DNA of 64,000 nt from Cyanobacteriota bacterium (GCA_040752795.1 JBFMGH010000608.1:22209-86208), one strand, 5' to 3'; shown: positions 19,385-59,632, numbered from the stretch's first letter. Program-made: numbers and translations. Notes: generated by a model not told the origin, from the letters alone.

Positions 19385-19528
19385 GTTTATTCTGCTTATA
19401 CCTTATTGTTTCGCTATGATTGTTTTTCTTACATTTGTGCTTCTCAGTTTTGTGTAGTATATCACATTTAATAGAAGCAATTTGCATTGTATAGTTTATA
19501 AAATAAAGTTTTATTAATAATTACAGAG

Positions 19529-20713: not shown

Positions 20714-20730
20714 TTACTTATATTAATCCT

Positions 20731-20835
20731 TTATCTGAAAAGCAAAGGAAGTAACATTGCACTAACTGTCCACAGAATAAATGAAAGAGCTATTATTGCA
20801 ACAATAATTTTGCTATTTTTGCGTAAAAATTCCAT
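20731..20835 (-). CDS. Unlisted 34-aa single-TM small protein immediately upstream of the M23 peptidase gene
   Basis: Hand-translated from the minus strand as MEFLRKNSKIIVAIIALSFILWTVSAMLLPLLFR*. An AGGT lies 8 nt upstream of the ATG. The stop is 17 nt before the M23 start. It is below the 60-aa cutoff of the ORF track. Confidence 0.3.
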   Translation of the reverse strand: MEFLRKNSKIIVAIIALSFILWTVSAMLLPLLFR

Positions 20836-21097
20836 AGATTTTACCTATATGAAATTTCATTTGTCACTACAATTTCTTTATATTTTACCCTACATTTACC
20901 ATAATGAAAATTAATTGTTGAGTTTAATGAAATAGAAGTCTTTGAAGTTTTATAGGAAGTAGATTTAGCCCTGTTTTGAAATGTAAATTTAATTTATGAA
21001 TAAAAAAAGTTTGATCATGTTCAAAACATGTTCAAAACTTATTGCCAAAATGTAATCTTCTTTGTTTGTCGGGGTTTTTGTTTGTCGAAAAGTTCTG

Positions 21098-41935: not shown

Positions 41936-42737
41936 TATTTTCTAATATAACCTCATTTAGACTTCCTGTTCTATAACCTTGCAGGTCTAATACAACATAT
42001 GTATAACCAATTTCTTTTAATTTTTCTATTACAAGGTCAGCATGGAATGATACAAAATTAATAATCTTGCTTTTATCAACTTCTATACGGGCAAGATTGT
42101 TATGATGCCTTATCCTTACTGGCGAATAACCCAGCTCTTTAAGAAACTTTTCAGCATCAGAAATCATTTTAAGATTTTCAGGTGTTATTTTAATACCATA
42201 TGGTATTCTTGAGGCCAGGCATGGATTGGCTGGTTTGTTGCAGTTAGGCATATTAAGTTCTCTGGCAAGGCTATAGATCTCATTTTTGGTTATACCAGAC
42301 TCTAGTAGCGGGCTTTTTATACCCAGTGAATGAGCGTGCTTTAGCCCTGGTCTGTAATCTTGAAGATCATCAATATTGTCACCTGACGCAACATATCTAT
42401 AACCTTTTTGTTCTGCAATTTTAATAATCTGCTTAAAGCGAATATCTTTACACCATTTGCACTTGTCTTTTGGGTTGTTGGTAAATTCAACATATTTCAA
42501 CTCATCAGATTCAACTATAAGATGAGGCCATTTAAAAGTTTCGGCAATTTTTTTTGCTTCTTCTAATTCTGCAGTGGTGATGGTTTCTGAATTTGCTGTT
42601 ACGGCAAGAAATTTGTCCTGTAATACTAAATGTGCAAAATAGCACAGAATAGTACTGTCAACACCACCCGAGAAGCCAACAATAACTGATTCATATGATT
42701 TTAAGATCTCTTTTAACTTTTTAATTTTTTCTTCCAT
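41925..42737 (-). CDS. larE: LarE-like PP-loop ATP pyrophosphatase (sulfur-insertion protein)
   Basis: 270 aa. It has the PP-loop GFSGGVDST, the conserved Cys region NKPANPCLASRIPYG and a length typical of LarE (TIGR00268). Confidence 0.7.
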   Translation of the reverse strand: MEEKIKKLKEILKSYESVIVGFSGGVDSTILCYFAHLVLQDKFLAVTANSETITTAELEEAKKIAETFKWPHLIVESDELKYVEFTNNPKDKCKWCKDIRFKQIIKIAEQKGYRYVASGDNIDDLQDYRPGLKHAHSLGIKSPLLESGITKNEIYSLARELNMPNCNKPANPCLASRIPYGIKITPENLKMISDAEKFLKELGYSPVRIRHHNNLARIEVDKSKIINFVSFHADLVIEKLKEIGYTYVVLDLQGYRTGSLNEVILENNEH

Positions 42738-44634
42738 TTTTTTTATTCCAGATATACCTTTTTGCCTGTAAAAGTTTTGTAATTCTATTCATTTCGAGTA
42801 CAAGATAAACAAAGGGGTTTATAATATTATGGACTCTTTTAGCTGTTAGAAATTCTCCGTTTTCAGAACTGGTAGTCATATTAGCAAGTATATTAACAGC
42901 TGGGGGTCTGGCAGCATCTACAATACCGAAAATATACAGATCTGTTTTTTCGCCGTGAGCGTTATTGATTTTACCTTCAGCAATTTTCTGAGCTAACATA
43001 TTAAGAGCAGGTGACTCTGTAGTGGTTCTGCAGCTTGCATCATAAACTTCGTGGAATGGTTGATAATTGTTATTTACCTGTTTTATGGGTTCTGGTATGA
43101 ATTTTATTAGCCATGTTTTTGTTTCCAGTATTTCTTTTAGCCTTATAGCTAGTGGGTCATTAGGAGGGAGCTTGTATCCTGGTTTTTCTTTCATTCTTCT
43201 TTCTATTTCTTTTATTATTTCTTTTTCTTCTTCCTGAAGGCCTAATAGAATCTGTTTAATACACCCCCTTGTGGTTTGAACATCAACAACTTTTGGTATT
43301 TCAACGCAATGATTCCAGTCTGTAACAAGTATAATAATTCTATGGTTAAGGCTTTTATCCTTAATTAGCTCTCTATGTGCTATTCTTAGAGCTGTTTCAA
43401 TATCAGTGGTGTAGTCTTGGTTCTCTGTTAACTTAAAAGAATAGTTGATTGGGCCTCCGTCTCTATTTATTGCTTTTACATATTTTTTAAATTCTGTAAA
43501 AGCGTTGTTTTTATCAGGCCCTGTTGGTGGAAGTAAGTAAGATAGATCTGTAGAACCTGCAAAAGGTAGAAAACCTATCTTGAATATTTGAGAAGGGCCA
43601 GCCTCTTCTTTTTCCAGTAGGTTGGCAAAGGTATACAAACCACTTCTTACCATTTCAATTCTGGAAATAGCACTGTCTCCCCAGTTTATACTTTCTGTGC
43701 TTGCTAGAGCTGATAAAGCATTATTAAACTCTGTGAACCTTAAGTCTGCTATTTGTTTTGCTGCAGCCTGCCCCAGTGGGTGGCCAAAAAGTTTATCTAT
43801 TGGCATGTCAAATAGCATAGATGGTCTATATCTCTCGTCAAAATCTGTTTTTGGATTATCATATATGCTGCCAACTGCAAAATCATCTTCATTTTTGTAT
43901 TTCTGGTGTGGTGTTCCAAAAGTTCCGTCATAAGATACATCAACATTACAATTATTGTAAATATAATTTATAACCTTTTCGGGTGGTGTATTTTTTGCAA
44001 ATACGGGATATTTTTCTTTTGGGACTGTTTTTGTAGCCTCTTCGTTTGGATCAACAACAGCCAGTGGGTTATGGCCCCATCCATAGTTTGACATAGACAT
44101 TGAAGGTGTCATGTCTACAACAAACATTATTCCTATAGCTGGCTCTTCAAATTTTTTCTCAGGCTTTTGAATTAAAATTTTGCTACCTAACACAAGGCTT
44201 GGCTTTGGTACATCAATTTTAGGCATTTTATAGAAGACTTCCAGTGTTGCATCTATTAAATAATTTCCGTCTGGAAGAAGCCGCTCATTTTTTTTGGAGG
44301 AATATGAAACGTTGCGGAGTATCCATCTGTAGTGAATATTTGTTTTTTGATCTTTATAAATTTGAGTTTTTATTTCATAATCATTTTTTTGATTGAATAC
44401 ATTATATTCTTCTAAAACCCCGATAAATTCAGGGCTACTTCCAACAGCTTTTTCCATAAGGCTACTTGCTACAGCTCTTTCGTGGCTTAATAGTTTGCCT
44501 TCGGCACCGGACTGACCACTAGTACTGCCTCTGCTTATTACTATAATTGGTATAATAGCAAGTGAGATAATAAGTAAACTTATTGCCAGTTCAACCATGC
44601 TAAATCCAATATAACCGTTTCTCTTTATTGACAT
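42721..44634 (-). CDS. Modular type IV prepilin-like protein with von Willebrand A module
   Basis: 637 aa. The class III signal MSIKRNGYIG/FSMVELAISLLIISLAIIPIIV has the expected G-1, F+1 and E+5. The vWA MIDAS-like motifs are VVDMTPSMS and IIILVTDWN. Confidence 0.65.
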   Translation of the reverse strand: MSIKRNGYIGFSMVELAISLLIISLAIIPIIVISRGSTSGQSGAEGKLLSHERAVASSLMEKAVGSSPEFIGVLEEYNVFNQKNDYEIKTQIYKDQKTNIHYRWILRNVSYSSKKNERLLPDGNYLIDATLEVFYKMPKIDVPKPSLVLGSKILIQKPEKKFEEPAIGIMFVVDMTPSMSMSNYGWGHNPLAVVDPNEEATKTVPKEKYPVFAKNTPPEKVINYIYNNCNVDVSYDGTFGTPHQKYKNEDDFAVGSIYDNPKTDFDERYRPSMLFDMPIDKLFGHPLGQAAAKQIADLRFTEFNNALSALASTESINWGDSAISRIEMVRSGLYTFANLLEKEEAGPSQIFKIGFLPFAGSTDLSYLLPPTGPDKNNAFTEFKKYVKAINRDGGPINYSFKLTENQDYTTDIETALRIAHRELIKDKSLNHRIIILVTDWNHCVEIPKVVDVQTTRGCIKQILLGLQEEEKEIIKEIERRMKEKPGYKLPPNDPLAIRLKEILETKTWLIKFIPEPIKQVNNNYQPFHEVYDASCRTTTESPALNMLAQKIAEGKINNAHGEKTDLYIFGIVDAARPPAVNILANMTTSSENGEFLTAKRVHNIINPFVYLVLEMNRITKLLQAKRYIWNKKNGRKN

Positions 44635-46227: not shown

Positions 46228-47187
46228 GTGCCTGAAATAGTGAACAGTACTTTTAATAAATATTTTCACCAGCCTGTAATGGTAAATAAAGTTATAGAAG
46301 CTTTAGATTGTGAGCCAGGAAAAGTTTATGTTGATTGCACAGTGGGTGGTGCAGGGCATTCTGTTTTAATTGCTCAAAAAATAAAACCAGATGGAAAACT
46401 TATTTGTCTTGATGTTGATCAAAATGCTATTGATGAGGCAACAAATAACTTAAAATCTTTTAATAATGTATATATATTAAGGTTGAATCATCTTAATTTA
46501 CCACAGGTTTTGAACCAGGTTGGTGTTGATAAAATAGACGGTGGAGTACTAATGGATCTGGGCGCTTCATATTATCAGTTAACCTCCCCGGATAAAGGAT
46601 TTACTTTTCAATGTTCTTCCCGGCTTGATATGAGAATGGATGAAACATTAATTACTTCTGCCGAGGATCTTGTTAACAATCTTAGTGCTGAAGAATTAGC
46701 TGAAATATTCTGGAAATATGGAGAAGAAAGGCATTCTAGAAAAATTGCATCCGCTATTAGTAATTATTCTAAAAAAGAGAAAATAACAGATACCCTTCAG
46801 CTTGCTGAAATAATTAAAACTGCTATACCCGGATACAAAAAATACAAAATACATCCTGCAACCAGAACATTTCAGGCGCTGAGAATTTTTATTAATAAAG
46901 AGTTAGAGGTATTGGAAGGTTCTCTATCTAACTTAATTAGTCTTACATCTCCCGGGGCAAAAATTGTTGTAATAACTTTTCATTCTTTAGAAGACAGGAT
47001 TGTTAAAAATTTTTTTAAACATTGGTCAAAAGACTGTGTATGCCCATCAGAAATGATTGAATGTAGATGTAATCATAAAAAGAAGCTAAAAATAATAACA
47101 AAAAAACCAATTGTTCCAGATAATAATGAGTTAGAATGTAATCCTGCAGCACGTAGTTCAAAATTAAGAATTGCAGAAAGGGTTTAA
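46228..47187 (+). CDS. rsmH: 16S rRNA (cytosine1402-N4)-methyltransferase RsmH
   Basis: 319 aa. It has HQPVMVNKVIEAL, the SAM-binding DCTVGGAGHS and PATRTFQALRIFIN motifs. Confidence 0.9.
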   Translation: MPEIVNSTFNKYFHQPVMVNKVIEALDCEPGKVYVDCTVGGAGHSVLIAQKIKPDGKLICLDVDQNAIDEATNNLKSFNNVYILRLNHLNLPQVLNQVGVDKIDGGVLMDLGASYYQLTSPDKGFTFQCSSRLDMRMDETLITSAEDLVNNLSAEELAEIFWKYGEERHSRKIASAISNYSKKEKITDTLQLAEIIKTAIPGYKKYKIHPATRTFQALRIFINKELEVLEGSLSNLISLTSPGAKIVVITFHSLEDRIVKNFFKHWSKDCVCPSEMIECRCNHKKKLKIITKKPIVPDNNELECNPAARSSKLRIAERV

Positions 47188-47188
47188 A

Positions 47189-47599
47189 ATGTTATCTTCA
47201 AAAATATTTAGAAGTGAAAGAAACATTATTGAAAATAATTACGACACAGATTTTGAAGAAGAATCAAGATTTAGTGGGGCTTTTAAAAAAATAGTATGTA
47301 TACTTGTTCTTTTTGCAGCAATATCTTCCTTTGTCAGTTATACATTAGTACTCTCAAAAGAAAAAGAATTGCAGTTTTTACATTCTAAAACTGTTTCAAA
47401 GGAGATGGATAACATATATATGAGAAATAATGTTGAGTTTACTAAAAGCCTTTATAATGTTAACAAAAAGGCAAAGTCGATTAATTACCTGCAAAAGCCA
47501 TTAAAGATTATTGAAATTGATTTAGATGAAAAAAAATTAAGTATAGATCTTGATAAAACATTGCAATATTCAAATGATAGAATAGTTGCAGGTTATTAA
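47189..47599 (+). CDS. FtsL-like small bitopic cell-division protein
   Basis: The ATG at 47189 is 1 nt after the rsmH stop (the track shows an upstream TTG at 47171). The protein is 136 aa with a single TM (IVCILVLFAAISSFVSYTLVL) followed by a coiled-coil-like region. It sits at the ftsL position of the dcw cluster. Confidence 0.45.
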   Translation: MLSSKIFRSERNIIENNYDTDFEEESRFSGAFKKIVCILVLFAAISSFVSYTLVLSKEKELQFLHSKTVSKEMDNIYMRNNVEFTKSLYNVNKKAKSINYLQKPLKIIEIDLDEKKLSIDLDKTLQYSNDRIVAGY

Positions 47600-47667
47600 T
47601 ATACCTGTTATATTTGCTTATTATGTATTATTTGTTATTAAAACTAATGGTATAAATTTTTATTAAT

Positions 47668-49203
47668 ATGGAGAAAATTAAATTGGCCAAGCATTTGACA
47701 GATTTATTAGAGTTAAAAAATATAAAATATGATTTAATTAAAGCGGAAAATGATAATAACCCTTTAATAAACGCTATTTCGTATAATTCTAAGACTACAG
47801 AACCAGGTAATATATTTGTTTGTCTGGTAGGTGAAAATTTTGATGCACATAAATTTGTTGATGATGCAATATTAAAAGGTGCAGTGGCAGTTATAGCACA
47901 GAAAAATATTAAGGGGTTAAGTGTTCCTGTAGTAGTAGTAGAAAATACTGCTAAGGTAATGGCTGTAGTAGCTACAGAAATATATGATAATCCAAGCAAG
48001 AGAATAAGACTTATTGGTATAACAGGGACTAATGGTAAAACTACAGTCACACATCTTGTAGAAAAGATTCTTGAGAAAAATAAAAAGAAATGCGGTCTTA
48101 TCGGTACACTTGGCCATAGGTTTAAGAGTACTGATAAATATTTAAATAGTAAGCATACTACACCTCAAGCCCCTGAGTTGCAGTCTTATCTAGCAGAAAT
48201 GGTTGATCAGAAATTTGATTATACGGTTATGGAAGTTAGTTCGCATGCACTGGATTTACATAGAGTCCAGGATTGTCATTTTGCAGTGGCCCTCATAACA
48301 AATTTAACTCAGGATCATCTTGATTTTCATGTTACTATGGAGAACTATGCCAGTGCTAAATTAAAGTTATTCAGTCAATTGGCAGAGTCTGAGTTAGAGA
48401 ATAAAACTGCTATTATTAATATTGATGATAATTATGCCGGAAAATTTCTTGAAATAATACCTGATAACATAACTAAATTGACTTATGGTTTAGCTTCTGA
48501 TGCTGATATTCAAGCTGTTGATATTGAATATTCTGTCAATGGGACAGTTTTTACCTGTGTTGCACCTGAAAAAACATTTAAAGTAAACTTAAAATTAAAA
48601 GGACTATTTAGTGTTTATAATGCTTTATCTGCAATAAGTGTTTCTATAGCTGAAAAAGTTCCACCTGAGATAATATGTGAAGCGCTTGAAGAAATTGAGA
48701 ATATACCTGGCAGGTTTGAAACTGTATCAAGCAATCCTTTAATAATAGTAGACTACGCACATACACCAGATGGGTTATCTAATGTGCTAACAGCAGCAAG
48801 AAAACTAGTACCAGATGGTGGAGAATTAATAACATTATTTGGTTGTGGTGGGGATAGAGATCCTACAAAACGTCCTAAAATGGCTAAAATAGTCGAGGAT
48901 CTTTCAGATAAAATTATTGTTACCTCTGATAATCCAAGAACGGAAGACCCTCAACAAATTATAACAGACATATTAACAGGCATTAAAAGTCTGGGTTCAA
49001 GTCATGTTAAGGTTGAAATAGATAGAGCACTGGCGATTGAAATGGCTATTAAATCTGCAAAACCTGATGATGTAATTGTAGTTGCTGGCAAAGGTCATGA
49101 AGATTACCAGATATTAGCTGATAGAACAATTCATTTTGATGACAGGGAAGAAGTTAAAAAGGTAATTGAAAAATTGAATCTTGCTAAATCAATAAGCACT
49201 TAG
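47668..49203 (+). CDS. murE: UDP-N-acetylmuramoyl-L-alanyl-D-glutamate--2,6-diaminopimelate ligase
   Basis: 511 aa. It has the Mur ligase P-loop GITGTNGKTT and the DAP-specifying region DNPR (SDNPRTEDP). Confidence 0.9.
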   Translation: MEKIKLAKHLTDLLELKNIKYDLIKAENDNNPLINAISYNSKTTEPGNIFVCLVGENFDAHKFVDDAILKGAVAVIAQKNIKGLSVPVVVVENTAKVMAVVATEIYDNPSKRIRLIGITGTNGKTTVTHLVEKILEKNKKKCGLIGTLGHRFKSTDKYLNSKHTTPQAPELQSYLAEMVDQKFDYTVMEVSSHALDLHRVQDCHFAVALITNLTQDHLDFHVTMENYASAKLKLFSQLAESELENKTAIINIDDNYAGKFLEIIPDNITKLTYGLASDADIQAVDIEYSVNGTVFTCVAPEKTFKVNLKLKGLFSVYNALSAISVSIAEKVPPEIICEALEEIENIPGRFETVSSNPLIIVDYAHTPDGLSNVLTAARKLVPDGGELITLFGCGGDRDPTKRPKMAKIVEDLSDKIIVTSDNPRTEDPQQIITDILTGIKSLGSSHVKVEIDRALAIEMAIKSAKPDDVIVVAGKGHEDYQILADRTIHFDDREEVKKVIEKLNLAKSIST

Positions 49204-50345
49204 TTTTGATAGACCTTAACATTGTTTCTGCCATCATTTTTAGCTTCATATAATGCTATATCTGCCCTTTCAATTAATTCTTCAGGCGAATTAATGTTAT
49301 CTTTTGATTTTAATGTTGCTACGCCAGCAGATATTGTAATGGATTTAATGTTTTCATTGCTTCCTGCCCTGACTCTTGATTCAATTTTCCTTCTAATTGA
49401 TTCAGCAAGGTTTTTAGCCTGTTCTGAACTTAGTTTAGTTCCGATAATAACTATTTCTTCACCACCATATCTAGCAGCAACAATGTTCTTAGTGCATGCG
49501 TCAAGAATAATATTTGAAACCTGCTGTAATACCTGATCACCTATTTGATGCCCCAGTGTGTCATTGATATTTTTAAAGTGATCAATGTCAAGCATTATCA
49601 CAGATAAATAGTGGTTTCTAAGTTTTGCAAAGCTAAACTCGTTTTTAAGCCTTTCATTCATATATTTACGTGTTCTCAGTTTTGTTAAAGTGTCAGTAAT
49701 TATTTCTTTTTCCAGCTGGATATTTTTGTTCACCAGTTCAGCTTTTTCTCTATCTAAACGTTTAATTATTAAATTATAAGCTTCTTTTAAAGCATTATCT
49801 TTACGCTTAGAGGCTTTTTCATTTACAATTTCTTTTTTAAGATTTTCAATATTTCTTTTTACCCTATCTTTAGAGGTAATATCACTTTTGTCATGGCTTG
49901 TTTTACTGCTTGAACCAGATGAATTATCTGCTGTAAGCCTGTGGGCTTTTTGATGTTTATAAGATTTAGCATTTTTACCAATGCTTATAAATGCGTTTTC
50001 GTAATCAATTAATTTTGTTACGTAATATTCAAGAATACAACCAATTAGCACGCATAGTGCAAGAGTTGTCAGACTTGAGAATTCCAATAATCCACCTGTC
50101 TGTCTGATGAAAAATTCAGGGAAATATGCTTGAATTGATTCTGGTAAAAAGGGATTTATTGAGTTAAAAACGAAAGAAACAGGAAAGTTAATTATGTCAG
50201 TTAAGAAATACACAGGTTTTGAAATGTAAGCATAGTCAGGAACTCCAGTATGAATTCCATTGAACTTTAAAAATAACCTTGTTATAAACAGGGCAGATAG
50301 TGCAATATAGCTTAATTTAATTATTATTTTTAAAGTTTTAAACAT
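49200..50345 (-). CDS. Membrane-anchored diguanylate cyclase (GGDEF, active-site GGEEI)
   Basis: 381 aa. Two N-terminal TMs and a coiled coil precede a GGDEF domain with RYGGEEIVIIG. It is last in a four-gene minus-strand operon. Confidence 0.8.
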   Translation of the reverse strand: MFKTLKIIIKLSYIALSALFITRLFLKFNGIHTGVPDYAYISKPVYFLTDIINFPVSFVFNSINPFLPESIQAYFPEFFIRQTGGLLEFSSLTTLALCVLIGCILEYYVTKLIDYENAFISIGKNAKSYKHQKAHRLTADNSSGSSSKTSHDKSDITSKDRVKRNIENLKKEIVNEKASKRKDNALKEAYNLIIKRLDREKAELVNKNIQLEKEIITDTLTKLRTRKYMNERLKNEFSFAKLRNHYLSVIMLDIDHFKNINDTLGHQIGDQVLQQVSNIILDACTKNIVAARYGGEEIVIIGTKLSSEQAKNLAESIRRKIESRVRAGSNENIKSITISAGVATLKSKDNINSPEELIERADIALYEAKNDGRNNVKVYQN

Positions 50346-50349
50346 GTAA

Positions 50350-52032
50350 TTACAACTTAAATACTTTTTGTATTTCTGTAAAGCTAGTAAATCCTGATAT
50401 AACTTTATTTAACGCAATATCAAGCAGTGTTTTATGGCCAGAACTCTTCAGAAATGTATTTAGTTCATCTTCTGGTATGCCGTCATTAAATAGATTGATA
50501 GTTGTATCGTCCATATAAAAGACTTCAAAAATACCAGTTCTGCTTTTGAATCCAGTAGAATTGCAGTCTTTGCAGCCTTTTTCTTTAAAATATGTAATAT
50601 TTTCAGGAAGGTTGTATTTTTCGATTAACCTATTATCTATTTTATGTTCAATTTTACATTTATTGCAAAGTTTTCTGATTAATTTTTGATCAAATGTTGC
50701 ATTAACAATTTTACAAATGAGCTTGGGCTCAATACCATATTCTAAAAGGCGGTAAAGAATATTTGTAGCACTATCAGCTATTATTGATGTGATAATAAGC
50801 TGACCTGATAAAATCGATTTTACTATTAAATCAAGATTATCAAGGTTTGTTATTTCATCTATGTATAAAATATCAGGTTCTTGAAGAAAAACATTTTTTA
50901 AAGCTGTTTCAATATCAAAACTTTTAGATATGCTAAGCTGACTTTGATTAATTTTATCTATGTTGTACCTGATGGGAGATTCAATTGTCATTATATTTTT
51001 CTGTTCAGAATTGATAGACTCCAGTATAGAGTACATTGTTGTAGTTTGTCCTGATCCAAGTGGCCCTGCAGCAATTACAAGACCATTTTCTTTTGATATT
51101 CCACTTTTTAATAACTTTAATTGATCGTTATATAATCCAAGTAATTCGATATTAGGTGCTTTAGGAAAAATTTTAATAACAATTTTTTCTCCATAGTTTA
51201 TCGGATAAGTAGATACTCTTGCATTGATAATATCTTTACCAATATTTACTTCTAATCTGCCATGCTGCGGTAAATATTCTTCATTTATATCAAGGCCTGC
51301 GGCAGACTTGATTCTTGAAATGGGCTCGGGAGCCAGTAAAATTGGGAGGCTGCCCCTGCTATACAAAAGTCCGTCAATGCGAAATCTTACAATCATTTCA
51401 TCCTGTTGCGGGTCCATGTGTATTTCGGAGGCATTCTCATGTATAGCCTGATAAATTATGGCTCTTACAAGTCTATATACATTTACTTCGTCTGTATTGT
51501 CATCATTAAGCTCACTCTGCCAGTCAAATTTGGGTTTTTCCGGCCCTTTTTTAGTTGGTTCTATATTGTCAGAGTTAGCAGACTTAGTTTTATAATAATA
51601 GTTTATTGCGTGTGAAATGCTTCTTTCTGAGCAAATAACTGGTTCAACCTTATAGTTTGAACTTATATCAAGATTATTTAAGGCAAATAAATCTAAAGGA
51701 TCTGACATGGCAATGGTTAGAGTGTCTTCAATCTTAAATAGCGGTATTATCCTGTATTTAGTGGCCTCTTCAGAGCTTATTAGCCCTATGGAGCTGGAAT
51801 CTATAGTGTATTCATCAAGATTAACGTATGGGATATGAAGTTTTTTCTCCAGAAAATTAAGTAATTTCTCTTCATTTATAATATTATTTTGAATAAGAAT
51901 TTGCCCTAGGTTTGTTTGTTCGTTTCTTGAAAGGTCAATGGCATCAACGAGCTGGTTATAATCTAATAAACCTTCTCTAACCAGGTCATATTTGAGTTTA
52001 TCTATGGCCTTGTTTGTTATTTTATAATCCAT
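50350..52032 (-). CDS. GspE/PilB/MshE-family secretion-ATPase homologue with degenerate catalytic motifs (predicted pseudo-ATPase), MshEN-type N-domain retained
   Basis: 560 aa. The Walker A is GPLGSGQTT (Lys to Gln). The Asp box is IESPIRY (Asp to Ser). The Walker B is EPDILYIDEITN. The His box is ITSIIAD (His lost). The tetracysteine cluster CNKC ... CKDC is intact. The N-terminus has a T2SSE_N/MshEN-like motif LGQILIQNNIINEEKLLNFL. Confidence 0.75.
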   Translation of the reverse strand: MDYKITNKAIDKLKYDLVREGLLDYNQLVDAIDLSRNEQTNLGQILIQNNIINEEKLLNFLEKKLHIPYVNLDEYTIDSSSIGLISSEEATKYRIIPLFKIEDTLTIAMSDPLDLFALNNLDISSNYKVEPVICSERSISHAINYYYKTKSANSDNIEPTKKGPEKPKFDWQSELNDDNTDEVNVYRLVRAIIYQAIHENASEIHMDPQQDEMIVRFRIDGLLYSRGSLPILLAPEPISRIKSAAGLDINEEYLPQHGRLEVNIGKDIINARVSTYPINYGEKIVIKIFPKAPNIELLGLYNDQLKLLKSGISKENGLVIAAGPLGSGQTTTMYSILESINSEQKNIMTIESPIRYNIDKINQSQLSISKSFDIETALKNVFLQEPDILYIDEITNLDNLDLIVKSILSGQLIITSIIADSATNILYRLLEYGIEPKLICKIVNATFDQKLIRKLCNKCKIEHKIDNRLIEKYNLPENITYFKEKGCKDCNSTGFKSRTGIFEVFYMDDTTINLFNDGIPEDELNTFLKSSGHKTLLDIALNKVISGFTSFTEIQKVFKL

Positions 52033-52035
52033 AAC

Positions 52036-52407
52036 CTATGTTAACTCTAGGTACTTTTTAACTAACTTTGTTATAGTTTCAATATCAAAAGGCTTTGTAA
52101 TGTACTCGTTGGCGCCTGTTTCTTCTCCAATGATTTTATCTTCTTCCTGAGTTCTTGCTGTAACCATTAAAATAGGAATATGCTTGTATTTTGCATCGAA
52201 TTTTAAAAGCCTGCAAACCTTATATCCGTTGATTTTAGGTAACATTACGTCAAGAACAATTAAGTCAGGGTTCTGGGTTTTGGCTAAACTTAAGGCTTCT
52301 TCACCGTCATATGCAACAACACACTCTAAACCTTCACTTTCAAGAATGAATTGCAGTGTTTCTACGATATCCTTTTCGTCATCAACTATTAATACTTTTT
52401 TGCTCAT
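52036..52407 (-). CDS. Single-domain CheY-like response regulator
   Basis: 123 aa. It has the receiver acid pocket (VDDEKD), the phospho-acceptor D in LIVLDVMLP, and the conserved T and K (ILMVTA, ITKPF). Confidence 0.85.
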   Translation of the reverse strand: MSKKVLIVDDEKDIVETLQFILESEGLECVVAYDGEEALSLAKTQNPDLIVLDVMLPKINGYKVCRLLKFDAKYKHIPILMVTARTQEEDKIIGEETGANEYITKPFDIETITKLVKKYLELT

Positions 52408-52443: not shown

Positions 52444-54537
52444 TTAGCATTTTAGAATTGGTATTGTGCTTTTAAGGCTTAATTCAATAAGTTCTTCACT
52501 TACAATAGCGTCATCAGGATAAATAGCAATTCCTAAGGTTAAGTTAGATTGATTACTTTCACACATATCTTTCGAAAATTGCTTCTTGATTCTTTTTACT
52601 ACGTTTTTTGCAGCAAATTTATCAGTATTTGAAAGAACTATTTTGATTATATTATCTTCGATTAAAAACTTTGATTTATCATCTTTTCTAAAAATATTTA
52701 CAATTTTATTTGAAACTTCTTCCATAACGTCTTTGGAGTATTCATTATTGTTTTTTATAGAAATTAAAGCAAGGCAGGAGTGGTTTTGCTTGGATTGCTG
52801 GAGTTTACTATCAAGTTCTAATAAGAAAATACTTTCCTGTCTTGCTGTAGGTAATATTAAGCAGAATTTACTGCCCTTATTTAACTCACTTTCAACCCAT
52901 ATTTCTCCTCTATGAGCATCTACGAGCTGTTTGGTTATGGCCAGGCCTAGGCCTGTTCCACCTACTTCACGGCTAAGGGAGCTTTCAATCTGTTGGAACT
53001 TGTCGAATACTTTATGAATATCTTCTTTTGCTATGCCTACACCCGTATCTTCTATTGCTATCTTAAGATACTCACCTTTAATTTTCTGACCTGCTTTGAT
53101 GTTTATAGAAGCTGGATCTTTATAGAAAAGTGTGTCATCCAGATTGGATGCGTCAACTAACTCAAGTGTTACTTTAATCTTTCCTCCACTGTGGGTGAAT
53201 TTTATTGCGTTTGAAACAAGATTGGCAAAAATTTGTTCTAACTTAGTGCAGTCTCCATAGATTTTTGGGAAGTTATTCTCTGGAATATTTGTTTCAATAA
53301 AGATATTTTTAGGATCTGCTACTGGTTTAAAAGTTGATATAACCATATTTAGTGGCTCGGCAATATCCAGTTCTGCAAATTTATAATCCATTTTGCCAGC
53401 TTCAATTTTAGAAAGGTCAAGTAAGTCATTTATAATACTTGATAACCTATCAACGTTTCTTTTGGCATTAGAGAGAAATTTTTCCTGTATAGATGTTATA
53501 TCTCCGCCTTTTTTTGTTAAGATAATATCTATAGAGCTTTTGATTGCTGTAAGTGGTGTTCTAAGTTCATGAGAGACTATTGAAATGAATTCAGATTTTA
53601 ATTTTTCTAGTTTCTCCAGTTTTATATTTTTTTCTTTGATTTCTTCGTAAAGAATAGCACTCTCTAAAGGTAAAGAAACCTGTTTAACAACGGTCTGAAA
53701 GCAGGTTATATCTTCGCCGGTAAATTCTGTTTCTCTAATAATTTCAACGGCTCCAAATGGGTTATCTGCAACGTTTATAGATGAGAACAGGTAGTCTTTA
53801 TCTAATATGTCAAGAGTTAACGTTTCATCTGATTTTCTTATGTTTATTTCAACTTCTAAATCCTCGGGTGTTAAATCGTCTCGATCTTCTCCTGTGTTTT
53901 CAAGATAGTTTGTGAGAATTCTTTCTTTAAGTTTTTCAAGTAATTCTTCAGTAATACTTTTTGAAGAATTTATAATAAGAAGAGGTTTTCCTTCATCAAG
54001 CACTAGTGTGCAGCATAAAGAGTGCTTAAGGCTTTTTTCAAGTCCAGTGTTCATTATTTTTAGGAGTTTATTTTTATCTAATGTGCCGGCAAACTGTGAA
54101 GAAGTATTGTATAATACATTTAGCTGGTATAAACTCTTAGCTAATTCACTATTGTTGGTATATAGAATATCTAATAATTTTTTAATACGCAGATGTGCAT
54201 TGATTGTAGCAATCAAAATACTATCACTAAAAGGCTTGGTTATGTAACCATCTGCACCGGCTAATATCTCATCAGGAGAGGAGTCTTTATCTGTAAGTAA
54301 TAATATTTGTATGTCATTAGTTTGAGTATAGAATTTCAAGTTTTTGCATATATTTGATAGGTTATCCTTGACTACTGTGGCGTCTATTAGCACTATATCA
54401 GGTAAATTTTCGTTAGTTAGTGCAATTGCTTCATCGCCGTTTTTGGCTAATAGCACTTCGTAGCCAAACTCAGCCAGGAGATTATGAATTTTATCAGCTC
54501 TTTTTAAGTTGTTATCTACTAAAATAATTTTTGACAT
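52444..54537 (-). CDS. Hybrid sensor: N-terminal receiver, HisKA, HATPase_c, C-terminal degenerate GGDEF-like domain
   Basis: 697 aa. It has a receiver (ILVDNN ... VLIDATV ... ITKPF), an H-box SHELRTPLTAI, and G1/G2 boxes (EDTGVGI, GGTGLGLAI). The about 130-aa C-terminal tail aligns to the GGDEF fold (LTLGIAIYPDDA), but the GG(D/E)EF position is IEDNI. Confidence 0.75.
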   Translation of the reverse strand: MSKIILVDNNLKRADKIHNLLAEFGYEVLLAKNGDEAIALTNENLPDIVLIDATVVKDNLSNICKNLKFYTQTNDIQILLLTDKDSSPDEILAGADGYITKPFSDSILIATINAHLRIKKLLDILYTNNSELAKSLYQLNVLYNTSSQFAGTLDKNKLLKIMNTGLEKSLKHSLCCTLVLDEGKPLLIINSSKSITEELLEKLKERILTNYLENTGEDRDDLTPEDLEVEINIRKSDETLTLDILDKDYLFSSINVADNPFGAVEIIRETEFTGEDITCFQTVVKQVSLPLESAILYEEIKEKNIKLEKLEKLKSEFISIVSHELRTPLTAIKSSIDIILTKKGGDITSIQEKFLSNAKRNVDRLSSIINDLLDLSKIEAGKMDYKFAELDIAEPLNMVISTFKPVADPKNIFIETNIPENNFPKIYGDCTKLEQIFANLVSNAIKFTHSGGKIKVTLELVDASNLDDTLFYKDPASINIKAGQKIKGEYLKIAIEDTGVGIAKEDIHKVFDKFQQIESSLSREVGGTGLGLAITKQLVDAHRGEIWVESELNKGSKFCLILPTARQESIFLLELDSKLQQSKQNHSCLALISIKNNNEYSKDVMEEVSNKIVNIFRKDDKSKFLIEDNIIKIVLSNTDKFAAKNVVKRIKKQFSKDMCESNQSNLTLGIAIYPDDAIVSEELIELSLKSTIPILKC

Positions 54538-54619
54538 ATTGATATTTTACCAGTTTTGATAAGTATTTTTTTAGAAATTTTTGTTATATCATTATCCTTT
54601 AATAAAGGGAGTAAAATCA

Positions 54620-55051
54620 ATGGAAAGATGTCCTTCTTGTAATGCACCTGTAAGCTCAAATAGTAAGTTTTGTAATGAGTGTGGATATGGTTTAATACAG
54701 AGTTCAACTTCTAATGTGCCATCTGATACAACTAAAAGGTCATACAAGTTACGTTCCCCTATATTAGAATCAGCTATATTGTATGACGATACAACCGAAA
54801 AAAAGCATGGTATGCTTGTTATCCTTTCATATAGTTTTTGGTTTTTTGCTGTTATATTTATAATTTATGGTATTATGCTTATCTATAAAAACTATACTAT
54901 AGATATTTTTAAGTCAGTAGTAGATGCCTCAATGCTATTTGCGCTTTCATTTGTGTGCTTTATACTTCCTGGTATTATAAATATACTTGTAGATATAGAA
55001 GAAAATCTTAAAGTTTTAGTAAAGGAGAGCAGGAAAGATAAAATAGACTGA
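54620..55051 (+). CDS. Zinc-ribbon membrane protein
   Basis: 143 aa from the ATG at 54620, which follows a GGGAG SD. The N-terminus has CPSCNAPV ... CNECG (a double CxxC ribbon), followed by two TM helices. Confidence 0.55.
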   Translation: MERCPSCNAPVSSNSKFCNECGYGLIQSSTSNVPSDTTKRSYKLRSPILESAILYDDTTEKKHGMLVILSYSFWFFAVIFIIYGIMLIYKNYTIDIFKSVVDASMLFALSFVCFILPGIINILVDIEENLKVLVKESRKDKID

Positions 55052-55532: not shown

Positions 55533-56237
55533 TTAGTCTTCAAAACGATATTTAAATAAAGTCCATATAGCCTGAAGTCCATCTTTCCAGGTTATCTTTT
55601 TACCTTCTTCATAGTCTCTGCCCTTATAAGAGATAGGTATTTCAATTATTTTATATTTTCTTTTCATTATTTTGGCGGAAATTTCAGGCTCAAAGTCAAA
55701 TTTGTTAGATTTAATGACAAAGCTTTTAATTACATCTGCCCTGAAAACTTTATAACAGGTTTCCATATCAGTTATAGAAGCACCATATAAAAGGTTGGTT
55801 AAAAAAGTTAGAAGCTTGTTAGCCATAAAACTTAGAAGTAAAAAGTTCTTTTTACTTTCTTCAGAAGCAAATCGTGAACCGTATACGATATCAGCCGTAT
55901 TGTTTTTAAATGGTTCTAGTAGTTTATTGTATTCAGATGGGTCATATTCAAGGTCAGCATCCTGAATTAATATTATGTCACCTGTTGTATAGTGCAAACC
56001 TGTTCTTAAGGCAGCTCCTTTTCCCATGTTATGGCCATGATAATAGATTTTGTATTTTTCTGTATCTTCTAATTTGTTTAATAAATCTCTAGTTCCATCT
56101 GTTGAACCATCGTCAACCAGTACGATTTCTTTTACAATATTACCAATATCTACGCTTTCTACTTTTTTAAGGACTTCTTCTAAGAACTTTATTTCATTGT
56201 AGATTGGTATTAAAATACTAAGCTTATTTATATTCAT
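55533..56237 (-). CDS. Family 2 glycosyltransferase (polyprenyl-phosphate hexose/pentose transferase-like, soluble)
   Basis: 234 aa. It has the GT-A motifs [27 protein letters not shown] and a DxD (QDADLEYD). Confidence 0.8.
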
Positions 56238-56249
56238 AAAATACCTCTA

Positions 56250-57272
56250 TTAAGTTGTTTCTGATTGACTTTCTTCTGGTAGTTCCTTTAAAGAAAGATG
56301 GCTGTGCCATGATAGAATTAAACCAATCAATACTACAGGGCCAATCATAATGAATTGAGTTGCAATAGCTATTGCTAAAGCGGTATCTTTCGGAACAGCT
56401 GACAAATCTAAGGCTAATATAAAAGCGTATTGATAGGGTCCTATAAAAGCAGGTCCTGATGGTATCATTGTACTGAATGCTACAAGTACAATTAAGAAGG
56501 CTACAGTTAAAGGTGTAACTTTTGTTGGGATGTCAAACCCACTTATAATACAAAATATTGTAGTCCACTCTAGAAACCAGGCACATATGCTGGTGAATAC
56601 AATAAATAATAAACTCCTGAAAGATGTTATGACACCTAAGCCAACAATGAATGATTTTAGTATTTTTTCAATTTTATTTTGTAAAAATTCAGGTAAAGCC
56701 TTTAAAATGCCAGTTATAAAACTATAATTTAGGTTTTCAGATCTTGATATGAAAACAATAACTGCCAGGCCTGTCAAGAATATCAGGCTGGTAACAATAC
56801 ATATGTGTACCAATAGCGGAGATTTATAAAAGAACATGATAAGTATAATCATTAGACTAACCAGTGTTAATCCATCAAAGATTCTCTCGGCAACAATAGA
56901 ACCTAAAGCCCCACTACGAGTTATCTTTTGCTCAGTGCCTATAATATGGGCTCTATATAACTCCCCCATTCTGGCTGGTAAAAGGGTATTTGCCATATAT
57001 CCTATGTATAAAGCTTTAAGTACTCCGAGAAAACTTATTTTCTTTGAGACAGAAAGTAGTTGTCTCCACCTGAAAGTTCTAATAATATATGATAATGCAT
57101 ATATTATTATTGCAGGTAAGGCATATTTAATATTGAAAGATTTTATTGAAGATATAAACTGGTTAATATTTATATTGTAAAAGATAAGTATCAAGAATAA
57201 TATACTAATAAATATTCCGAAAGTTTTATGATTAATCCATTTTGGAAACGTTAGTTCTTTTTGCATACTCAA
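56250..57272 (-). CDS. Flippase-like polytopic membrane protein (lysylphosphatidylglycerol-synthase TM-region family)
   Basis: 340 aa with about 8 TM helices, and a charged loop RTFRWRQLL after TM2 as in MprF/LPG_synthase_TM proteins. It is adjacent to GT2. The 5' end overlaps the UXS-like gene by 35-41 nt depending on start choice. Confidence 0.6.
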
Positions 57273-58188
57273 TATACCAGTTTATAGACTTTAACAGCCC
57301 TTCTTCTAGCCCTACAACAGGTTCCCAATTTAAATGTTGTTTGGCAAAAGAAATATCAGGTCTCCGGACTTTAGGATCATCTTCAGGCAGTGGTTTGAAA
57401 ATGATATCACTTTTACTATTACTTAATTTTATAATTAATTTGGCTAAATCCAAAATAGAAATTTCTTGTGGGTTACCAATGTTGACAGGAGTATTGATAT
57501 CAGAGTTCATCAGGGCAAATATGCCTTCTATAAGATCTGAAACATATTGTATACTTCTGGTTTGAGAACCATCGCCAAAAACTGATAGAGGCTCATTTTT
57601 AAGTGCTTGATTAATAAATGTTGAAACGACCCGCCCATCATCTGGTCTCATTCTTTCGCCATGAGTATTAAAGATTCTTGCAATTCTGGTATTGAGCCCG
57701 TGTTCATTGTGATATGCAGTAGTTAATGCTTCACCGAATCGTTTGGATTCATCATAACAGCCTCTTGGGCCAATAGGGTTAACATTGCCCCAGTAGCTTT
57801 CTGGCTGTGGATTAATTAGTGGATCTCCATAAACTTCTGATGTTGATGCAAATAAAAATTTAGAATGCTTATTCATTGCTAGCCCAAGTGCATTGTGAGT
57901 TCCTAGTGATCCAACCTTAAGTGTTTGTATCGGGTAATTAAGATAATCAATAGGGCTTGCCGGGGAAGCAAAATGTATAACCCAATCTAGCTTTTGAGAA
58001 ACATAAATATACCTGCTTACATCATGGTAGATAAATTCAAAATTTCTATTTGATCTATGAATTTCCAGGTTTTCAATCATACCTGTAATAAGATTATCTA
58101 AAACATACACTTTATGACCTTCTTCTATTAGTTTGTCACATAAGTGTGAGCCTAAGAATCCTGCTCCGCCTGTTATTAATATATTCAT
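57232..58188 (-). CDS. UDP-glucuronate decarboxylase (UXS/ArnA C-terminal-domain-like SDR)
   Basis: 318 aa. It has [18 protein letters not shown], the catalytic YDESKRFGE region and [26 protein letters not shown], which is typical of UXS/ArnA decarboxylases. Confidence 0.8.
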
Positions 58189-58189
58189 T

Positions 58190-59632
58190 TTAAAATCCTA
58201 TTCCTGCTCCAATTCTTTCCATTTCGGTACTTCTGCCTACGGTATAATGTAAAATACCTTTTTCTTTTGCTGTCTTAGGGTCAATAATATTTCTAGCATC
58301 TATTATTATTGGTATAGCCATCACTTCTTTGACTTCAATCAAGTTCATATACTTGAACTCATCCCATTCAGTAACGATTATGATAGCTTCACAATCTTTC
58401 GCAAGATCCATTATGTTATTTTCATATGTTAATTCAAGTTCGGGATTTTGTTCTTTACAGTTAGGCATTGCAATTGGATCATAAGCCTTTACCCGGGCAC
58501 CCATTTTTATCAGTTGTCGTATTATTGTCAAGCTAGGTGCATCCCTTAGGTCGTCAGTGTTAGGCTTGAACGATAGGCCTAAAACCCCTATGGTTCTGCC
58601 TTTAATTATTTTTAGAGCTTGTTGTAGCTTTTTAACAATGGTTTGTCTTTGTTTCATGTTGACGTTGATAGTGGATTGAAGCAGTTCTGGGTGAAAATCA
58701 TATTCTTTTGCAATGCTTATAATAGCGTTAAGGTCTTTGCCAAAACAGCTACCTCCCCATCCAATACCTGCTTTAAGAAATTTACCGCCTATTCTGGAGT
58801 CCAGTCCAATGCCTTTTGCTACCTGTTCTATATCTGCTCCTACGCTTTCACAAATATTTGCAACTTCATTAATGAAGCTAATTTTTGTTGCTAGAAAAGC
58901 ATTAGAGGCATATTTTATCATTTCTGCGCTTGTGATGTCTGTAACAACAAGTGGTACAGCGTTAATGCCAGCTGGAGCAACAAGTTCTTTTATAGGTGGT
59001 GTAAAATTCTGCTGTAATATTGGTTCATATAGTTTATTTAGAATAATTACAGCTCTTTCATCACTGGTGCCAATTACAACTCTATCTGGATAAAGTGTGT
59101 CATATATAGCACTACCTTCTCTCAAGAACTCGGGATTACTCGCTACAAGAAAACCAGGATTGCAACAGCTATTTATATTGTTTTCTTTGCTGCACTTTTC
59201 ATGAGCTTTTCTCACCCCTTCGTTTACAAGCATTTCAACCCAGTTCCCTGAGCCTATTGGAACAGTTGATTTGTTAATAATTATTCTTACTCTATCAGTA
59301 TCTAAAGCCTCGCCAATAGCATATGAAACATTTTTAACGTATTCTAGATTAGGTTCACCATCTTCTAATGGTGGTGTGCCAACAGCTATAAATACTACTT
59401 CAGATTTTTTAACGGCACTTATAGTATCTGTAGTAAACTTAATGTTGCCACTTTTAATACATATTTTTAGAAGTTCTTCTAGGCCTGGTTCATAAAAAGT
59501 AGGTATTCCTTGTTGTAATTTCTCTACTTTCTTTGCATCTATATCAACACAATTAACATTATTGCCTAAATAAGCAAGGCATACGCCTGTTACCAATCCC
59601 ACATAACCTGTACCAGTTACACAAACTTCCAT
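58190..59632 (-). CDS. ugd: UDP-glucose 6-dehydrogenase
   Basis: 480 aa. It has an N-terminal Rossmann ([10 protein letters not shown]) and the catalytic Cys region GGSCFGKD. It lies 2 nt upstream of the decarboxylase gene. Confidence 0.9.

Follow-up and report, generated by a model that had tools for sequence, protein, structure and literature searches.

We analyzed a 64,000-nucleotide (nt) stretch of DNA from Cyanobacteriota bacterium (GCA_040752795.1, JBFMGH010000608.1:22209-86208; referred to below as the window). On its minus strand, an open reading frame (ORF) at 50350..52032 starts with ATG and encodes a PilB/GspE-family protein of 560 amino acid residues (aa), here called a pseudo-ATPase. 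Its gene is the third in a tightly packed minus-strand operon, following genes for a histidine kinase and a response regulator and preceding a gene for a diguanylate cyclase. The gaps measure 36 nt between kinase and regulator, 3 nt between regulator and pseudo-ATPase, and 4 nt between pseudo-ATPase and cyclase. The cyclase gene closes the operon, its end overlapping the convergent murE gene, while the opposite flank is formed by a divergent zinc-ribbon gene and then by polysaccharide genes. The operon genes and the main features of the kinase are the following (window coordinates).

52444..54537, minus strand: hybrid histidine kinase, 697 aa, with a receiver (REC) domain, about 190 aa without assignment, HisKA, HATPase_c and a degenerate GGDEF-like C-terminus (Pfam)
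53548-53586, minus strand: H-box of the kinase, SHELRTPL (read from the translation)
52447-52830, minus strand: C-terminal degenerate GGDEF-like domain of the kinase, about 130 aa, missed by Pfam (alignment to a Nitrospirota kinase)
52036..52407, minus strand: single-domain response regulator, 123 aa, no output domain, phospho-acceptor Asp in LIVLDVMLP at 52234-52266 (Pfam Response_reg, 105.9 bits)
50350..52032, minus strand: PilB/GspE-family pseudo-ATPase, 560 aa (ORF, Pfam, NCBIfam, AlphaFold2 (AF2) model, alignments)
49200..50345, minus strand: diguanylate cyclase, 381 aa, hydrophobic N-terminal region, GGEEI at aa 294 (Pfam GGDEF, 151 bits)

By homology and fold, the 560-aa protein is a member of the PilB/GspE superfamily. 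Pfam searches match it to T2SSE (PF00437; aa 180-555, 264.8 bits, E-value 1.2e-78) and to MshEN (PF05157; aa 66-150, 66.7 bits, E-value 1.8e-18), and its closest solved relatives are the Geobacter PilB structures (E-value 1e-95). The AF2 model, built from an alignment of 95 sequences, has a mean predicted local distance difference test (pLDDT) score of 86.4; its N2D domain and C-terminal domain (CTD) superpose on chain 5tsh_E of PilB:AMP-PNP with a root-mean-square deviation of 2.0 Å over 381 columns and a template modeling score of 0.91. Judged from this model, the PilB fold is predicted to be intact. The top NCBIfam models are those for PilB and GspE, both scoring well under their curated equivalog cut-offs (TIGR02538, 401.4 bits versus 675.65; TIGR02533, 339.2 bits versus 630.25). 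Since these thresholds are missed and the catalytic features fail as well (see below), annotation as a pilus assembly ATPase is unwarranted. A 100% identical protein (P0001) is recorded from two sources, NCBI and Logan, on two contigs, which excludes a local assembly error. The domains and modules of the pseudo-ATPase are listed from the N-terminus.

51841..52011, minus strand: N1 four-helix bundle, aa 8-64, two 24-residue MshEN motifs with a 5-residue spacer (alignment; NF053729, 33.7/38.2 bits)
51583..51837, minus strand: MshEN C-terminal subdomain, aa 66-150, opening with the conserved HIPYVNLD (Pfam PF05157, 66.7 bits; pLDDT mostly 70-90)
51508..51528, minus strand: clade-specific linker motif FDWQSEL, aa 169-175 (alignment)
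51133..51492, minus strand: N2D domain, aa 181-300, with R272 kept, K287 in place of the second Arg finger and PQDGR changed to PQHGR (alignment)
50563..50667, minus strand: tetracysteine Zn module, C456/C459/C487/C490, CNKC...CKDC (alignment)

The same order of N1 (MshEN/GSPII), N2D, CTD and tetracysteine Zn module is found in PilB (Geobacter PDB entries 5tsh, 5tsg and 5zfr; Thermus PilF). Unlike PilB, the window protein lacks catalytic residues and is encoded after a kinase and a regulator, not with pilC, pilT and pilM.

Degenerate catalytic motifs

Roles of individual residues were taken from Geobacter metallireducens PilB (PMC5424180) and carried over through the sequence alignment to the solved Geobacter PilB structures, with the following outcome for the catalytic motifs.

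51040..51066, minus strand: degenerate Walker A, GPLGSGQTT, aa 323-331, Lys changed to Gln (read from the translation)
50965..50985, minus strand: degenerate Asp box, IESPIRY, aa 350-356, Asp changed to Ser and the Mg-coordinating Glu to Arg (alignment)
50845..50880, minus strand: altered Walker B, EPDILYIDEITN, aa 385-396, Gly changed to Asp, E393 kept, the next Arg and Asp lost (alignment)
50767..50808, minus strand: degenerate His box, SGQLIITSIIADSA, aa 409-422 (contains ITSIIAD), H413 changed to Gln and H420 to Ile (alignment)
51217-51219, minus strand: Arg finger R272, kept (alignment)
51172-51174, minus strand: K287 in place of the second Arg finger (alignment)

In the numbering of the window protein, the Walker A Lys is replaced by Q329, the Asp-box Asp by S352, the Mg-coordinating Glu (E357 in G. 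metallireducens PilB) by R355, the Gly of the atypical Walker B motif (hhhhG) by D392, the gamma-phosphate Arg finger (R286 in G. metallireducens PilB) by K287, and the two His-box histidines (H413 and H420 in G. metallireducens PilB) by Q411 and I418. These histidines coordinate the gamma-phosphate in PilB and couple its subunits (PMC5424180). Residues kept include the catalytic Glu (E393), the Arg finger R272, R259 and R453 (R455 in G. metallireducens PilB). All scored positions are canonical in seven out of seven intact comparators, two of them canonical PilB/GspE proteins and five relatives from the kinase-linked clade described below, and the canonical consensus motifs occur at high frequency in the 78 non-degenerate sequences of alignment A3. 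The motif strings quoted in the initial annotation of this gene were all present at their places when re-read from the translation, and its claim that every nucleotide-hydrolysis motif is mutated holds for the Walker A, Asp, Walker B and His boxes, but it does not extend to every catalytic residue, three of which (E393, R272 and R259) remain. With its Walker A Lys, Mg-binding Glu, gamma-phosphate Arg finger and both His-box histidines gone, this PilB/GspE-fold protein is predicted to be no longer able to perform the ATP-hydrolysis chemistry of its family.

Long-form orthologs and a short sister form

A search covering 5.8 billion proteins added 16 full-length proteins that are 49-63% identical to the window protein (17 long forms in all), with the next relatives only at 38%. 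Where an organism is named, the long forms come from Vampirovibrionia. The initial annotation had raised the possibility that orthologs share the substitutions, and this is the case: the Walker A motif, Asp box, Walker B motif and His box are degenerate in all 17 full-length orthologs, with Gln in place of the Walker A Lys in 16 of them and Arg in place of the Mg-binding Glu in 15. The P-loop glycines drift among long forms (SSSGIGQTT, GPLESSQAS, ASSGNGQNT). The replacement strings IESPIRY, GQTT and YIDEI are themselves conserved, which argues against decay.

Scanning one genome per GTDB species revealed 383 related loci, of which 80 were kept for analysis (1 long form and 79 short forms, mostly labeled Gastranaerophilales or Melainabacteria). 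The short form is a catalytically degenerate sister form of about 460 aa without the Zn and C-terminal regions, and alignments indicate that it is degenerate by a different set of residues. Its Walker A Lys is kept within a perfect GxxxxGKT in 79 of 80 sequences. The Asp-box Asp is replaced by Ser and the Mg-binding Glu by Lys (80/80 each), the Walker B Gly by Glu (80/80), and the Arg fingers R271 and R286 by Ser (77/80) and Lys (80/80), respectively. The catalytic Glu, kept as E393 in most long forms, is replaced by Gly in 73 of the 80 short forms. Both His-box histidines are gone from the short form, and no His was found at these positions in any degenerate member scored.

These patterns bear on the possibility that the protein is a rewired enzyme, in which a classical hhhhDE Walker B motif binds Mg through D392, R355 stands in for the Walker A Lys, and NTP is slowly hydrolyzed or drives switching. 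The change of Gly to Asp392 indeed restores YIDE beside the kept catalytic Glu, the residue at position 355 is consistently basic (Arg in 15/17 long forms, Lys in 80/80 short forms), and nearly all short forms have the perfect P-loop motif noted above. However, each form lacks a different set of indispensable residues: the P-loop Lys in the long form, and the catalytic Glu together with both Arg fingers in the short form. The drifting P-loop glycines of the long form, the loss of both His-box histidines from all members, and the position of the ATPase core among the least constrained domains (see below) also speak against such an enzyme, which we regard as very improbable.

Two side observations concern the genomes that carry these genes. 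One Gastranaerophilales metagenome-assembled genome (MAG; JAQVCB01, isolate STD2_79) has two full kinase/regulator/short-form cassettes on different contigs (loci L006 and L007), the pseudo-ATPases of which are 42% and 46% identical to the window protein; duplication or a mixed bin may explain this. Seven contigs with a Melainabacteria-type cassette (L005, L014, L015, L021, L030, L031 and L043) are deposited under names such as uncultured Gammaproteobacteria, Muribaculaceae, Anaerovoracaceae, Alistipes senegalensis and Clostridium sp., and these are probably mislabeled or contaminated bins.

Phylogeny and selection

In a distance-based neighbor-joining tree of 60 taxa (443 columns, 100 bootstraps), the long and short degenerate forms were monophyletic in 100/100 replicates and adjoined a catalytically intact clade. 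The mean distance to canonical PilB is 1.44 for the long form and 1.91 for the short form versus 0.91 for the intact sister clade, i.e. 1.6-2.1 times larger. We read this topology as suggesting a single loss of catalysis followed by accelerated divergence. The loss is ancient and common to the long-plus-short clade, which belongs to Vampirovibrionia (Melainabacteria) as far as organisms are named.

The ratio of nonsynonymous to synonymous substitution rates (dN/dS) was obtained from loci L090 and L091, the closest pair with DNA available (84% amino acid identity), at a dS of about 1.3, which approaches saturation yet remains usable; every pair but one comes close to saturation. The pseudo-ATPase has a dN/dS of 0.072 for the whole gene, 0.033 for N1, 0.071 for N2D, 0.094 for the dead ATPase core and 0.074 for the Zn region; the corresponding values are 0.006 for the response regulator and 0.034 for the kinase. 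Strong purifying selection thus acts on the whole protein, the dead core included. Column entropy in the degenerate long forms is 0.60 for N1 and 1.45 for the ATPase core, whereas in 78 active relatives it is 2.11 for N1 and 1.11 for the core; the two sets differ in depth, and only the rank reversal between N1 and core is meaningful. The order of conservation in the pseudo-ATPase is therefore inverted relative to active PilBs, with N1 the most conserved domain and the ATPase core among the least.

The proposal of a pseudo-enzyme maintained by purifying selection is thereby upheld at the sequence level, through the shared losses, the dN/dS value and the monophyly of the degenerate forms. The rival reading, a decaying pseudogene or an assembly or frameshift artifact of an ordinary pilB, is contradicted by the gene being intact in every lineage (the window, 17 long-form orthologs and about 80 short-form genomes), by the identical protein on record from two independent sources, by a dN/dS of 0.07 and by the conserved replacement motifs. 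We give it practically no credence and consider a sequencing error, frameshift or pseudogene of an ordinary pilB ruled out on these grounds.

The degenerate long form is also rare. In a library of 1.84 billion representatives clustered at 50% identity, the entire long-form clade corresponds to one representative (P0009, 919 bits), and the next single-domain match scores 530 bits. Among the 150 best representatives, which comprise the nearest relatives only, the Walker A, Asp box and Walker B motifs, as defined by regular expressions, are all missing only in P0009 and in two short forms (P0070 and P0305).

A conserved two-component cassette

We checked synteny by tblastn searches with the window proteins against 89 loci and by using the gene tables of L090 and L091, which left 84 informative degenerate loci; three further loci begin at a contig edge and were set aside as uninformative. 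An ortholog of the regulator lies directly upstream of the PilB-like gene in 83 of these 84 loci, with its match ending 5-294 nt, mostly less than 100 nt, before the match to the PilB-like protein. The kinase ortholog is found upstream of the regulator in related loci. The sole informative exception is L061, where the short-form gene (2789-4174) is preceded by an unrelated ORF of 549 aa and by neither regulator nor kinase. With an H-box, a HATPase_c domain, a receiver carrying the acidic pocket, the phospho-acceptor Asp, Thr and Lys, and conserved adjacency, the kinase, the 123-aa regulator and the PilB-like gene form a conserved cassette that we predict to be a two-component system.

The regulator is far better conserved than the pseudo-ATPase. 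Compared with the window regulator, its orthologs are 85-91% identical in long-form loci and 63-79% in short-form loci, and those of intact relatives from other phyla 64-72%; the PilB-like protein is 49-60% and 35-46% identical in long-form and short-form loci, respectively. The solved structures nearest to the 123-aa regulator are receiver domains of the OmpR/PhoB type. In the GGDEF-like domain of the kinase, IEDNI replaces GGDEF, and an RxxD-like RKDD stands five residues upstream, which is the canonical I-site spacing. This RKDD is present in 7/7 kinases of the long form, the lineage that carries the cyclase, and is lost in most short-form kinases. Six of the seven long-form loci (window, L001, L003, L005, L090 and L091) have the cyclase gene downstream; it was not found in L004 or in any of 80 short-form loci.

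A tblastn search with canonical PilB detected no second T2SSE gene, either in the 64-kb window or up to 8 kb away in the 89 loci. A conserved downstream partner was not found in short-form loci either, where the commonest downstream neighbors, with the same counts each, are a convergent prepilin gene and an unrelated membrane protein. The prepilin gene (MFVHKSKKGFTLAEILITLAVIG...) lies immediately 3' of the short form in nine loci, or in 11 when the two nearest ORFs are counted, as in the following example.

7004-7585 of locus L006, minus strand: convergent prepilin gene (prepilin sequence; a Gastranaerophilales minority)

A scan of the operon for promoters and terminators gave fewer matches than shuffled sequence and is uninformative.

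Catalytically intact relatives with the same cassette

The nearest intact clade (P0018-P0046, 36-38% identity) comes from MAGs of Nitrospirota, Thermodesulfobacteriota, Planctomycetaceae and Pseudomonadota; it includes no characterized organism, all named matches being uncultured MAGs. Its members have the same cassette of a kinase with a C-terminal degenerate GGDEF domain, a 123-aa REC protein and a PilB-like gene. In one Nitrospirota MAG, this cassette directly follows pilM-pilN-pilO-(unassigned ORF)-secretin (pilMNOPQ). The Nitrospirota regulator is 68% identical to that of the window, and the kinases are 37% identical over 406 aa, through the C-terminal domain that Pfam calls GGDEF. The intact PilBs share with the window protein an N-terminal variant, (K/R)LK...GL, and the K(L/I)HIPYV motif; they differ in that all catalytic motifs are intact, the evolutionary rate is that of a normal PilB and the FxWQxEL linker is missing. 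The pseudo-ATPase thus appears to derive from a cassette that elsewhere holds an active PilB beside pilus genes.

Among more distant matches (P0184-P0209 and P0219-P0235), many proteins of about 1000 aa contain two tandem T2SSE modules. In regular-expression searches, both halves of several of these "double PilB" proteins carry the complete motif set; in some, only one half does.

An origin beside pilMNOPQ would suit a pseudo-ATPase that acts as a stoichiometric inhibitor, or "poison subunit", of a genuine PilB encoded elsewhere, entering mixed hexamers or blocking the PilC/PilM site, with the regulator timing the block. The kept fold of N2D and CTD, the packing-unit architecture and R453 are compatible with such a role, paralogous pilus ATPases are reported to interact (PMC11656802), and type IV pilus genes have been reported in the genomes of Vampirovibrio (PMC4451040) and Gastranaerophilus (PMC5877343). 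On the other hand, none of the 89 loci has an intact PilB nearby, and the core is the fastest-evolving structured part of the protein and the Zn domain is deleted in the short form, which argues against precise co-assembly. We consider this inhibitor unlikely; it is a special case of an adaptor function rather than an exclusive rival to it.

N-terminal domain, linker and zinc module

The first helix of N1, IDKLKYDLVREGLL, is invariant across the 17 long-form orthologs, polar residues included, and its core KLKYDLVR, again with the polar residues, is conserved at 80-100% in the 80 short-form sequences. A second conserved element is the linker, the general form of which, (F/Y)(D/N)W(Q/R/K)xEL, is common to the long and short degenerate forms and absent from the intact relatives; its conserved positions are invariant (F169, W171 and E174) or nearly so in the long form, and the Trp and the Glu-Leu pair are conserved at 90% or more in short forms. 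Because the conservation of helix 1 and the linker exceeds the needs of a ligand site, it suggests protein-protein contacts. The zinc tetracysteine (C456, C459, C487 and C490), correctly described as kept in the initial annotation, does not vary in the long form or in active relatives; the short form has deleted it. Given this deletion, the Zn domain appears to be dispensable for the degenerate family.

The claim that the N1/MshEN domain is retained stands as far as the fold and the C-terminal subdomain are concerned, both of which are secure; the cyclic di-GMP (c-di-GMP) motif pair is borderline. The MshEN consensus is (R/K/L)LGxx(LVI)(LVI)xxG(LVI)(LVI)xxxxLxxxLxxQ, given twice, and Lys at position 1 is compatible with c-di-GMP binding (PMC11731258). 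In the window protein, which has the MshEN-like string NLGQILIQNNIINEEKLLNFL at aa 41-61, the 24+5+24 layout is preserved exactly, as are all six positions of the hydrophobic clusters. In motif I, Lys stands at position 3 instead of Gly and Ser at the end instead of Gln; in motif II, Asn, Asn and Lys occupy positions 1, 10 and 24, so that Asn replaces the central Gly and Lys the final Gln. Against the curated model NF053729, which describes the 53-residue motif pair with a cut-off of 38 bits, the window protein scores 33.7 bits at full length and 38.2 bits as an isolated N-terminus. The kinase-linked intact clade scores 28.0-32.5 bits, the short form 22.3 bits, and two canonical PilB/GspE N-termini 72.6 and 79.6 bits. 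From this borderline motif, c-di-GMP binding by N1 is possible.

If binding does occur, the protein could be mainly a c-di-GMP receptor, with the N-terminal bundle taking up the product of the cyclase, the dead ATPase serving as an effector scaffold, and the two-component system only tuning expression or the cyclase. The active-looking GGEEI cyclase encoded 4 nt downstream in most long-form loci, the kept spacing and cluster positions, the Lys at motif position 1 (PMC11731258) and the score of the isolated N-terminus, just over the cut-off, are all in favor of a receptor. Yet key determinants of both motifs are changed, and the score is half of canonical, dropping further to 28-32 bits in the intact relatives and 22 bits in the short form. 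Neither L004 nor any of the 80 short-form loci has the cyclase, while the regulator and kinase are almost always there, and the polar residues of helix 1 are invariant far past what ligand binding needs. A main role as a receptor is in our judgment improbable, although in the long form it may be combined with that of an adaptor.

Genomic neighborhood

An ORF of 637 aa without a Pfam match (42721-44634, minus strand), about 6 kb from the operon, starts with a prepilin-type signal, KRNGYIGFSMVELAISLLII, from which it follows that the genome codes for one or more large proteins resembling type IV pilins or pseudopilins.

Divergent from the kinase gene, a gene for a 156-aa zinc-ribbon protein (54581-55051, plus strand) occurs at the syntenic position in L001, L003, L090 and L091 and is missing from L004; it and the operon may have a regulatory region in common. 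Beside the cassette across the long-form clade (L001, L003, L004, L090 and L091) lies a polysaccharide/lipid-modification block, which occupies 55533-59632 (minus strand) in the window. The block encodes a GT2 glycosyltransferase, an LPG_synthase_TM-family membrane protein and an NAD-dependent epimerase, together with a UDP-glucose dehydrogenase in the window. Its position could reflect plain collinearity or, by analogy with signaling from Myxococcus PilB to exopolysaccharide, a functional link.

On the other side of the operon, in part of a division/cell-wall gene cluster, the window carries mraW, a 142-aa ORF and murE (46228-49203, plus strand) with no gene for a penicillin-binding protein (PBP) or FtsI between them; L001 (9292-13680) has a 600-aa PBP_dimer/Transpeptidase gene at this PBP-less position. 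A 173-175-aa ORF located between the cyclase gene and murE in L001, L003, L090 and L091 is also missing from the window. Farther away, at about 18000-22000, genes switch from mostly minus to mostly plus strand, and the cumulative GC skew has a minimum near 20 kb. ORFs near this minimum encode an M23 peptidase, a signal peptidase, ribosomal protein L25 and acetyl-CoA carboxylase subunits. A replication origin near 20 kb is not established, as a Pfam scan found no dnaA among the flanking ORFs.

Discussion

The motif losses, the conserved cassette and the intact relatives beside pilus genes make it probable that a former pilus motor now serves, without catalysis, as an output or adaptor element of a two-component pathway. 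We infer a binding or scaffolding role for the pseudo-ATPase, a role that is much better motivated by its invariant coupling to a response regulator and a histidine kinase, which the initial annotation does not mention; a pilus machine is one candidate site for it. In the scenario that we propose, the ancestral kinase and regulator would have controlled the pilus extension motor post-translationally, and the motor would have become a pure signal adaptor in Vampirovibrionia. The phosphorylated regulator would dock on the pseudo-ATPase, most likely at the nearly invariant first helix of N1 (KLKYDLVREGLL) or at the FxWQxEL linker. Docking would alter the partners of the pseudo-ATPase, which may be the base of the type IV filament (PilM/PilC) or a real PilB, on which it could act as a brake or placeholder. 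Alternatively, the output may be a downstream pathway such as polysaccharide synthesis, as with nucleotide-free Myxococcus PilB and exopolysaccharide.

The paired charge swap, in which Arg or Lys replaces the Mg-binding Glu and Asp or Glu replaces the Walker B Gly, is likely to create a salt bridge where Mg was once bound. We propose this because both swapped positions face the Mg site in the PilB geometry (PMC5424180). The salt bridge would replace the Mg-nucleotide and hold the core in a single state independent of nucleotide. The long form may receive a further input, namely c-di-GMP made by the co-transcribed cyclase and acting through the RxxD-bearing GGDEF-like domain of the kinase and possibly through N1. 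Taken to its full extent, and more tentatively, this would make the cassette an old module for post-translational control of type IV pili over several phyla, the motor of which became in Vampirovibrionia a salt-bridge-frozen phospho-signal transducer engaged by the regulator on the N1 helix.

Several points weigh against conversion of the motor into an adaptor of this kind. No pilus genes (pilC, pilT, pilM-Q, gspF, gspL) flank the Vampirovibrionia cassette, the genes downstream of it vary, and the prepilin-like ORF 6 kb away is the only local hint of a link to pili. In Synechocystis, the contact with PilB1 is made by a PATAN domain, and CheY-type regulators did not bind (bioRxiv 10.1101/2021.06.11.447907). 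The long form retains the catalytic Glu and has gained a classical hhhhDE Walker B motif, and the short form retains GxxxxGKT, so either form may still bind nucleotide. Finally, the organisms that carry the degenerate cassette are uncultured.

Parts of the proposed logic have precedents. PilB of Myxococcus xanthus signals to exopolysaccharide independently of pilus assembly, and its ATPase-deficient, nucleotide-free Walker A form is the signaling state (Black et al. 2017, PMC5544727). A natural PilB lacking the Walker A Lys, such as that of the window, would be its functional counterpart; the M. xanthus protein differs in that it still works as a motor, signaling being its second role, and has canonical c-di-GMP motifs, while the window clade has lost the motor and has a dedicated two-component partner. 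The Xanthomonas DrdR protein is an output-less response regulator that binds PilB and PilT (PMC13507683), and the PatA-type regulators PixE and PixG of Synechocystis bind PilB1 and PilC (bioRxiv 10.1101/2021.06.11.447907). In both cases, regulators without a DNA-binding output act post-translationally on PilB, which is the logic implied by the REC/PilB-like gene pair. They are orphan or chemotaxis-linked proteins that target an active PilB, unlike the plain 123-aa receiver of the window, which is fixed beside a dead one. TadZ/CpaE of Tad pili is an atypical ATPase kept as a regulator or localization factor. FimX, a degenerate GGDEF-EAL protein that works with PilZ and PilB (PMC11656802), likewise shows that an enzyme fold can be kept as a regulator of type IV filaments after catalytic loss; both have other folds (MinD/ParA and GGDEF/EAL, respectively) than that of the PilB/GspE motor. 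As for the kinase, SgmT of M. xanthus is a hybrid histidine kinase with a degenerate GGDEF domain that binds c-di-GMP (PMC3509222). The two share HisKA-HATPase, a receiver and a C-terminal degenerate GGDEF domain with an RxxD-type site. They differ in domain order; in the window kinase c-di-GMP binding is putative, and the RxxD is conserved only in the long-form clade.

Full-text searches of the literature found no degenerate or pseudo-ATPase PilB, GspE or PilT and no kinase-regulator-PilB module of Melainabacteria. A 2024 review of PilB regulation and multiple PilB homologs mentions no dead paralog (PMC11656802), and papers on Melainabacteria genomes list 'pilB' among pilus genes from automated searches (PMC5877343, PMC4451040). 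The combination of a class-wide dead motor with a dedicated two-component cassette appears to be undescribed, while the fold and the regulatory logic that underlie it are known.

PilB-family ATPases have been treated as obligate motors, with signaling observed so far for Myxococcus PilB alone, in states that were engineered or conditional. A whole bacterial class that has kept the PilB fold without catalysis would separate signaling or scaffolding from motor activity, and the cassette points to a plain receiver protein as the likely partner. The kinase/regulator/PilB cassette with active PilBs in other phyla would itself be an undescribed regulatory module. There are also consequences for genome annotation: cluster members are annotated in their sources as 'type IV pilus assembly protein PilB' or 'GspE/PulE family protein', and surveys that count 'pilB' in Melainabacteria may count the dead paralog, in which case the motility or competence deduced from it could be wrong. 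Many of the 383 related GTDB loci come from human and animal guts, and most have the short form. If the pseudo-ATPase is a frozen transducer of a phospho-signal, it would be the first known case of a secretion-motor fold serving as the output element of a two-component system. If its core is frozen as proposed, then Vampirovibrionia, including most gut Gastranaerophilales, would possess a permanent version of the 'nucleotide-free' state that Myxococcus PilB adopts only transiently.

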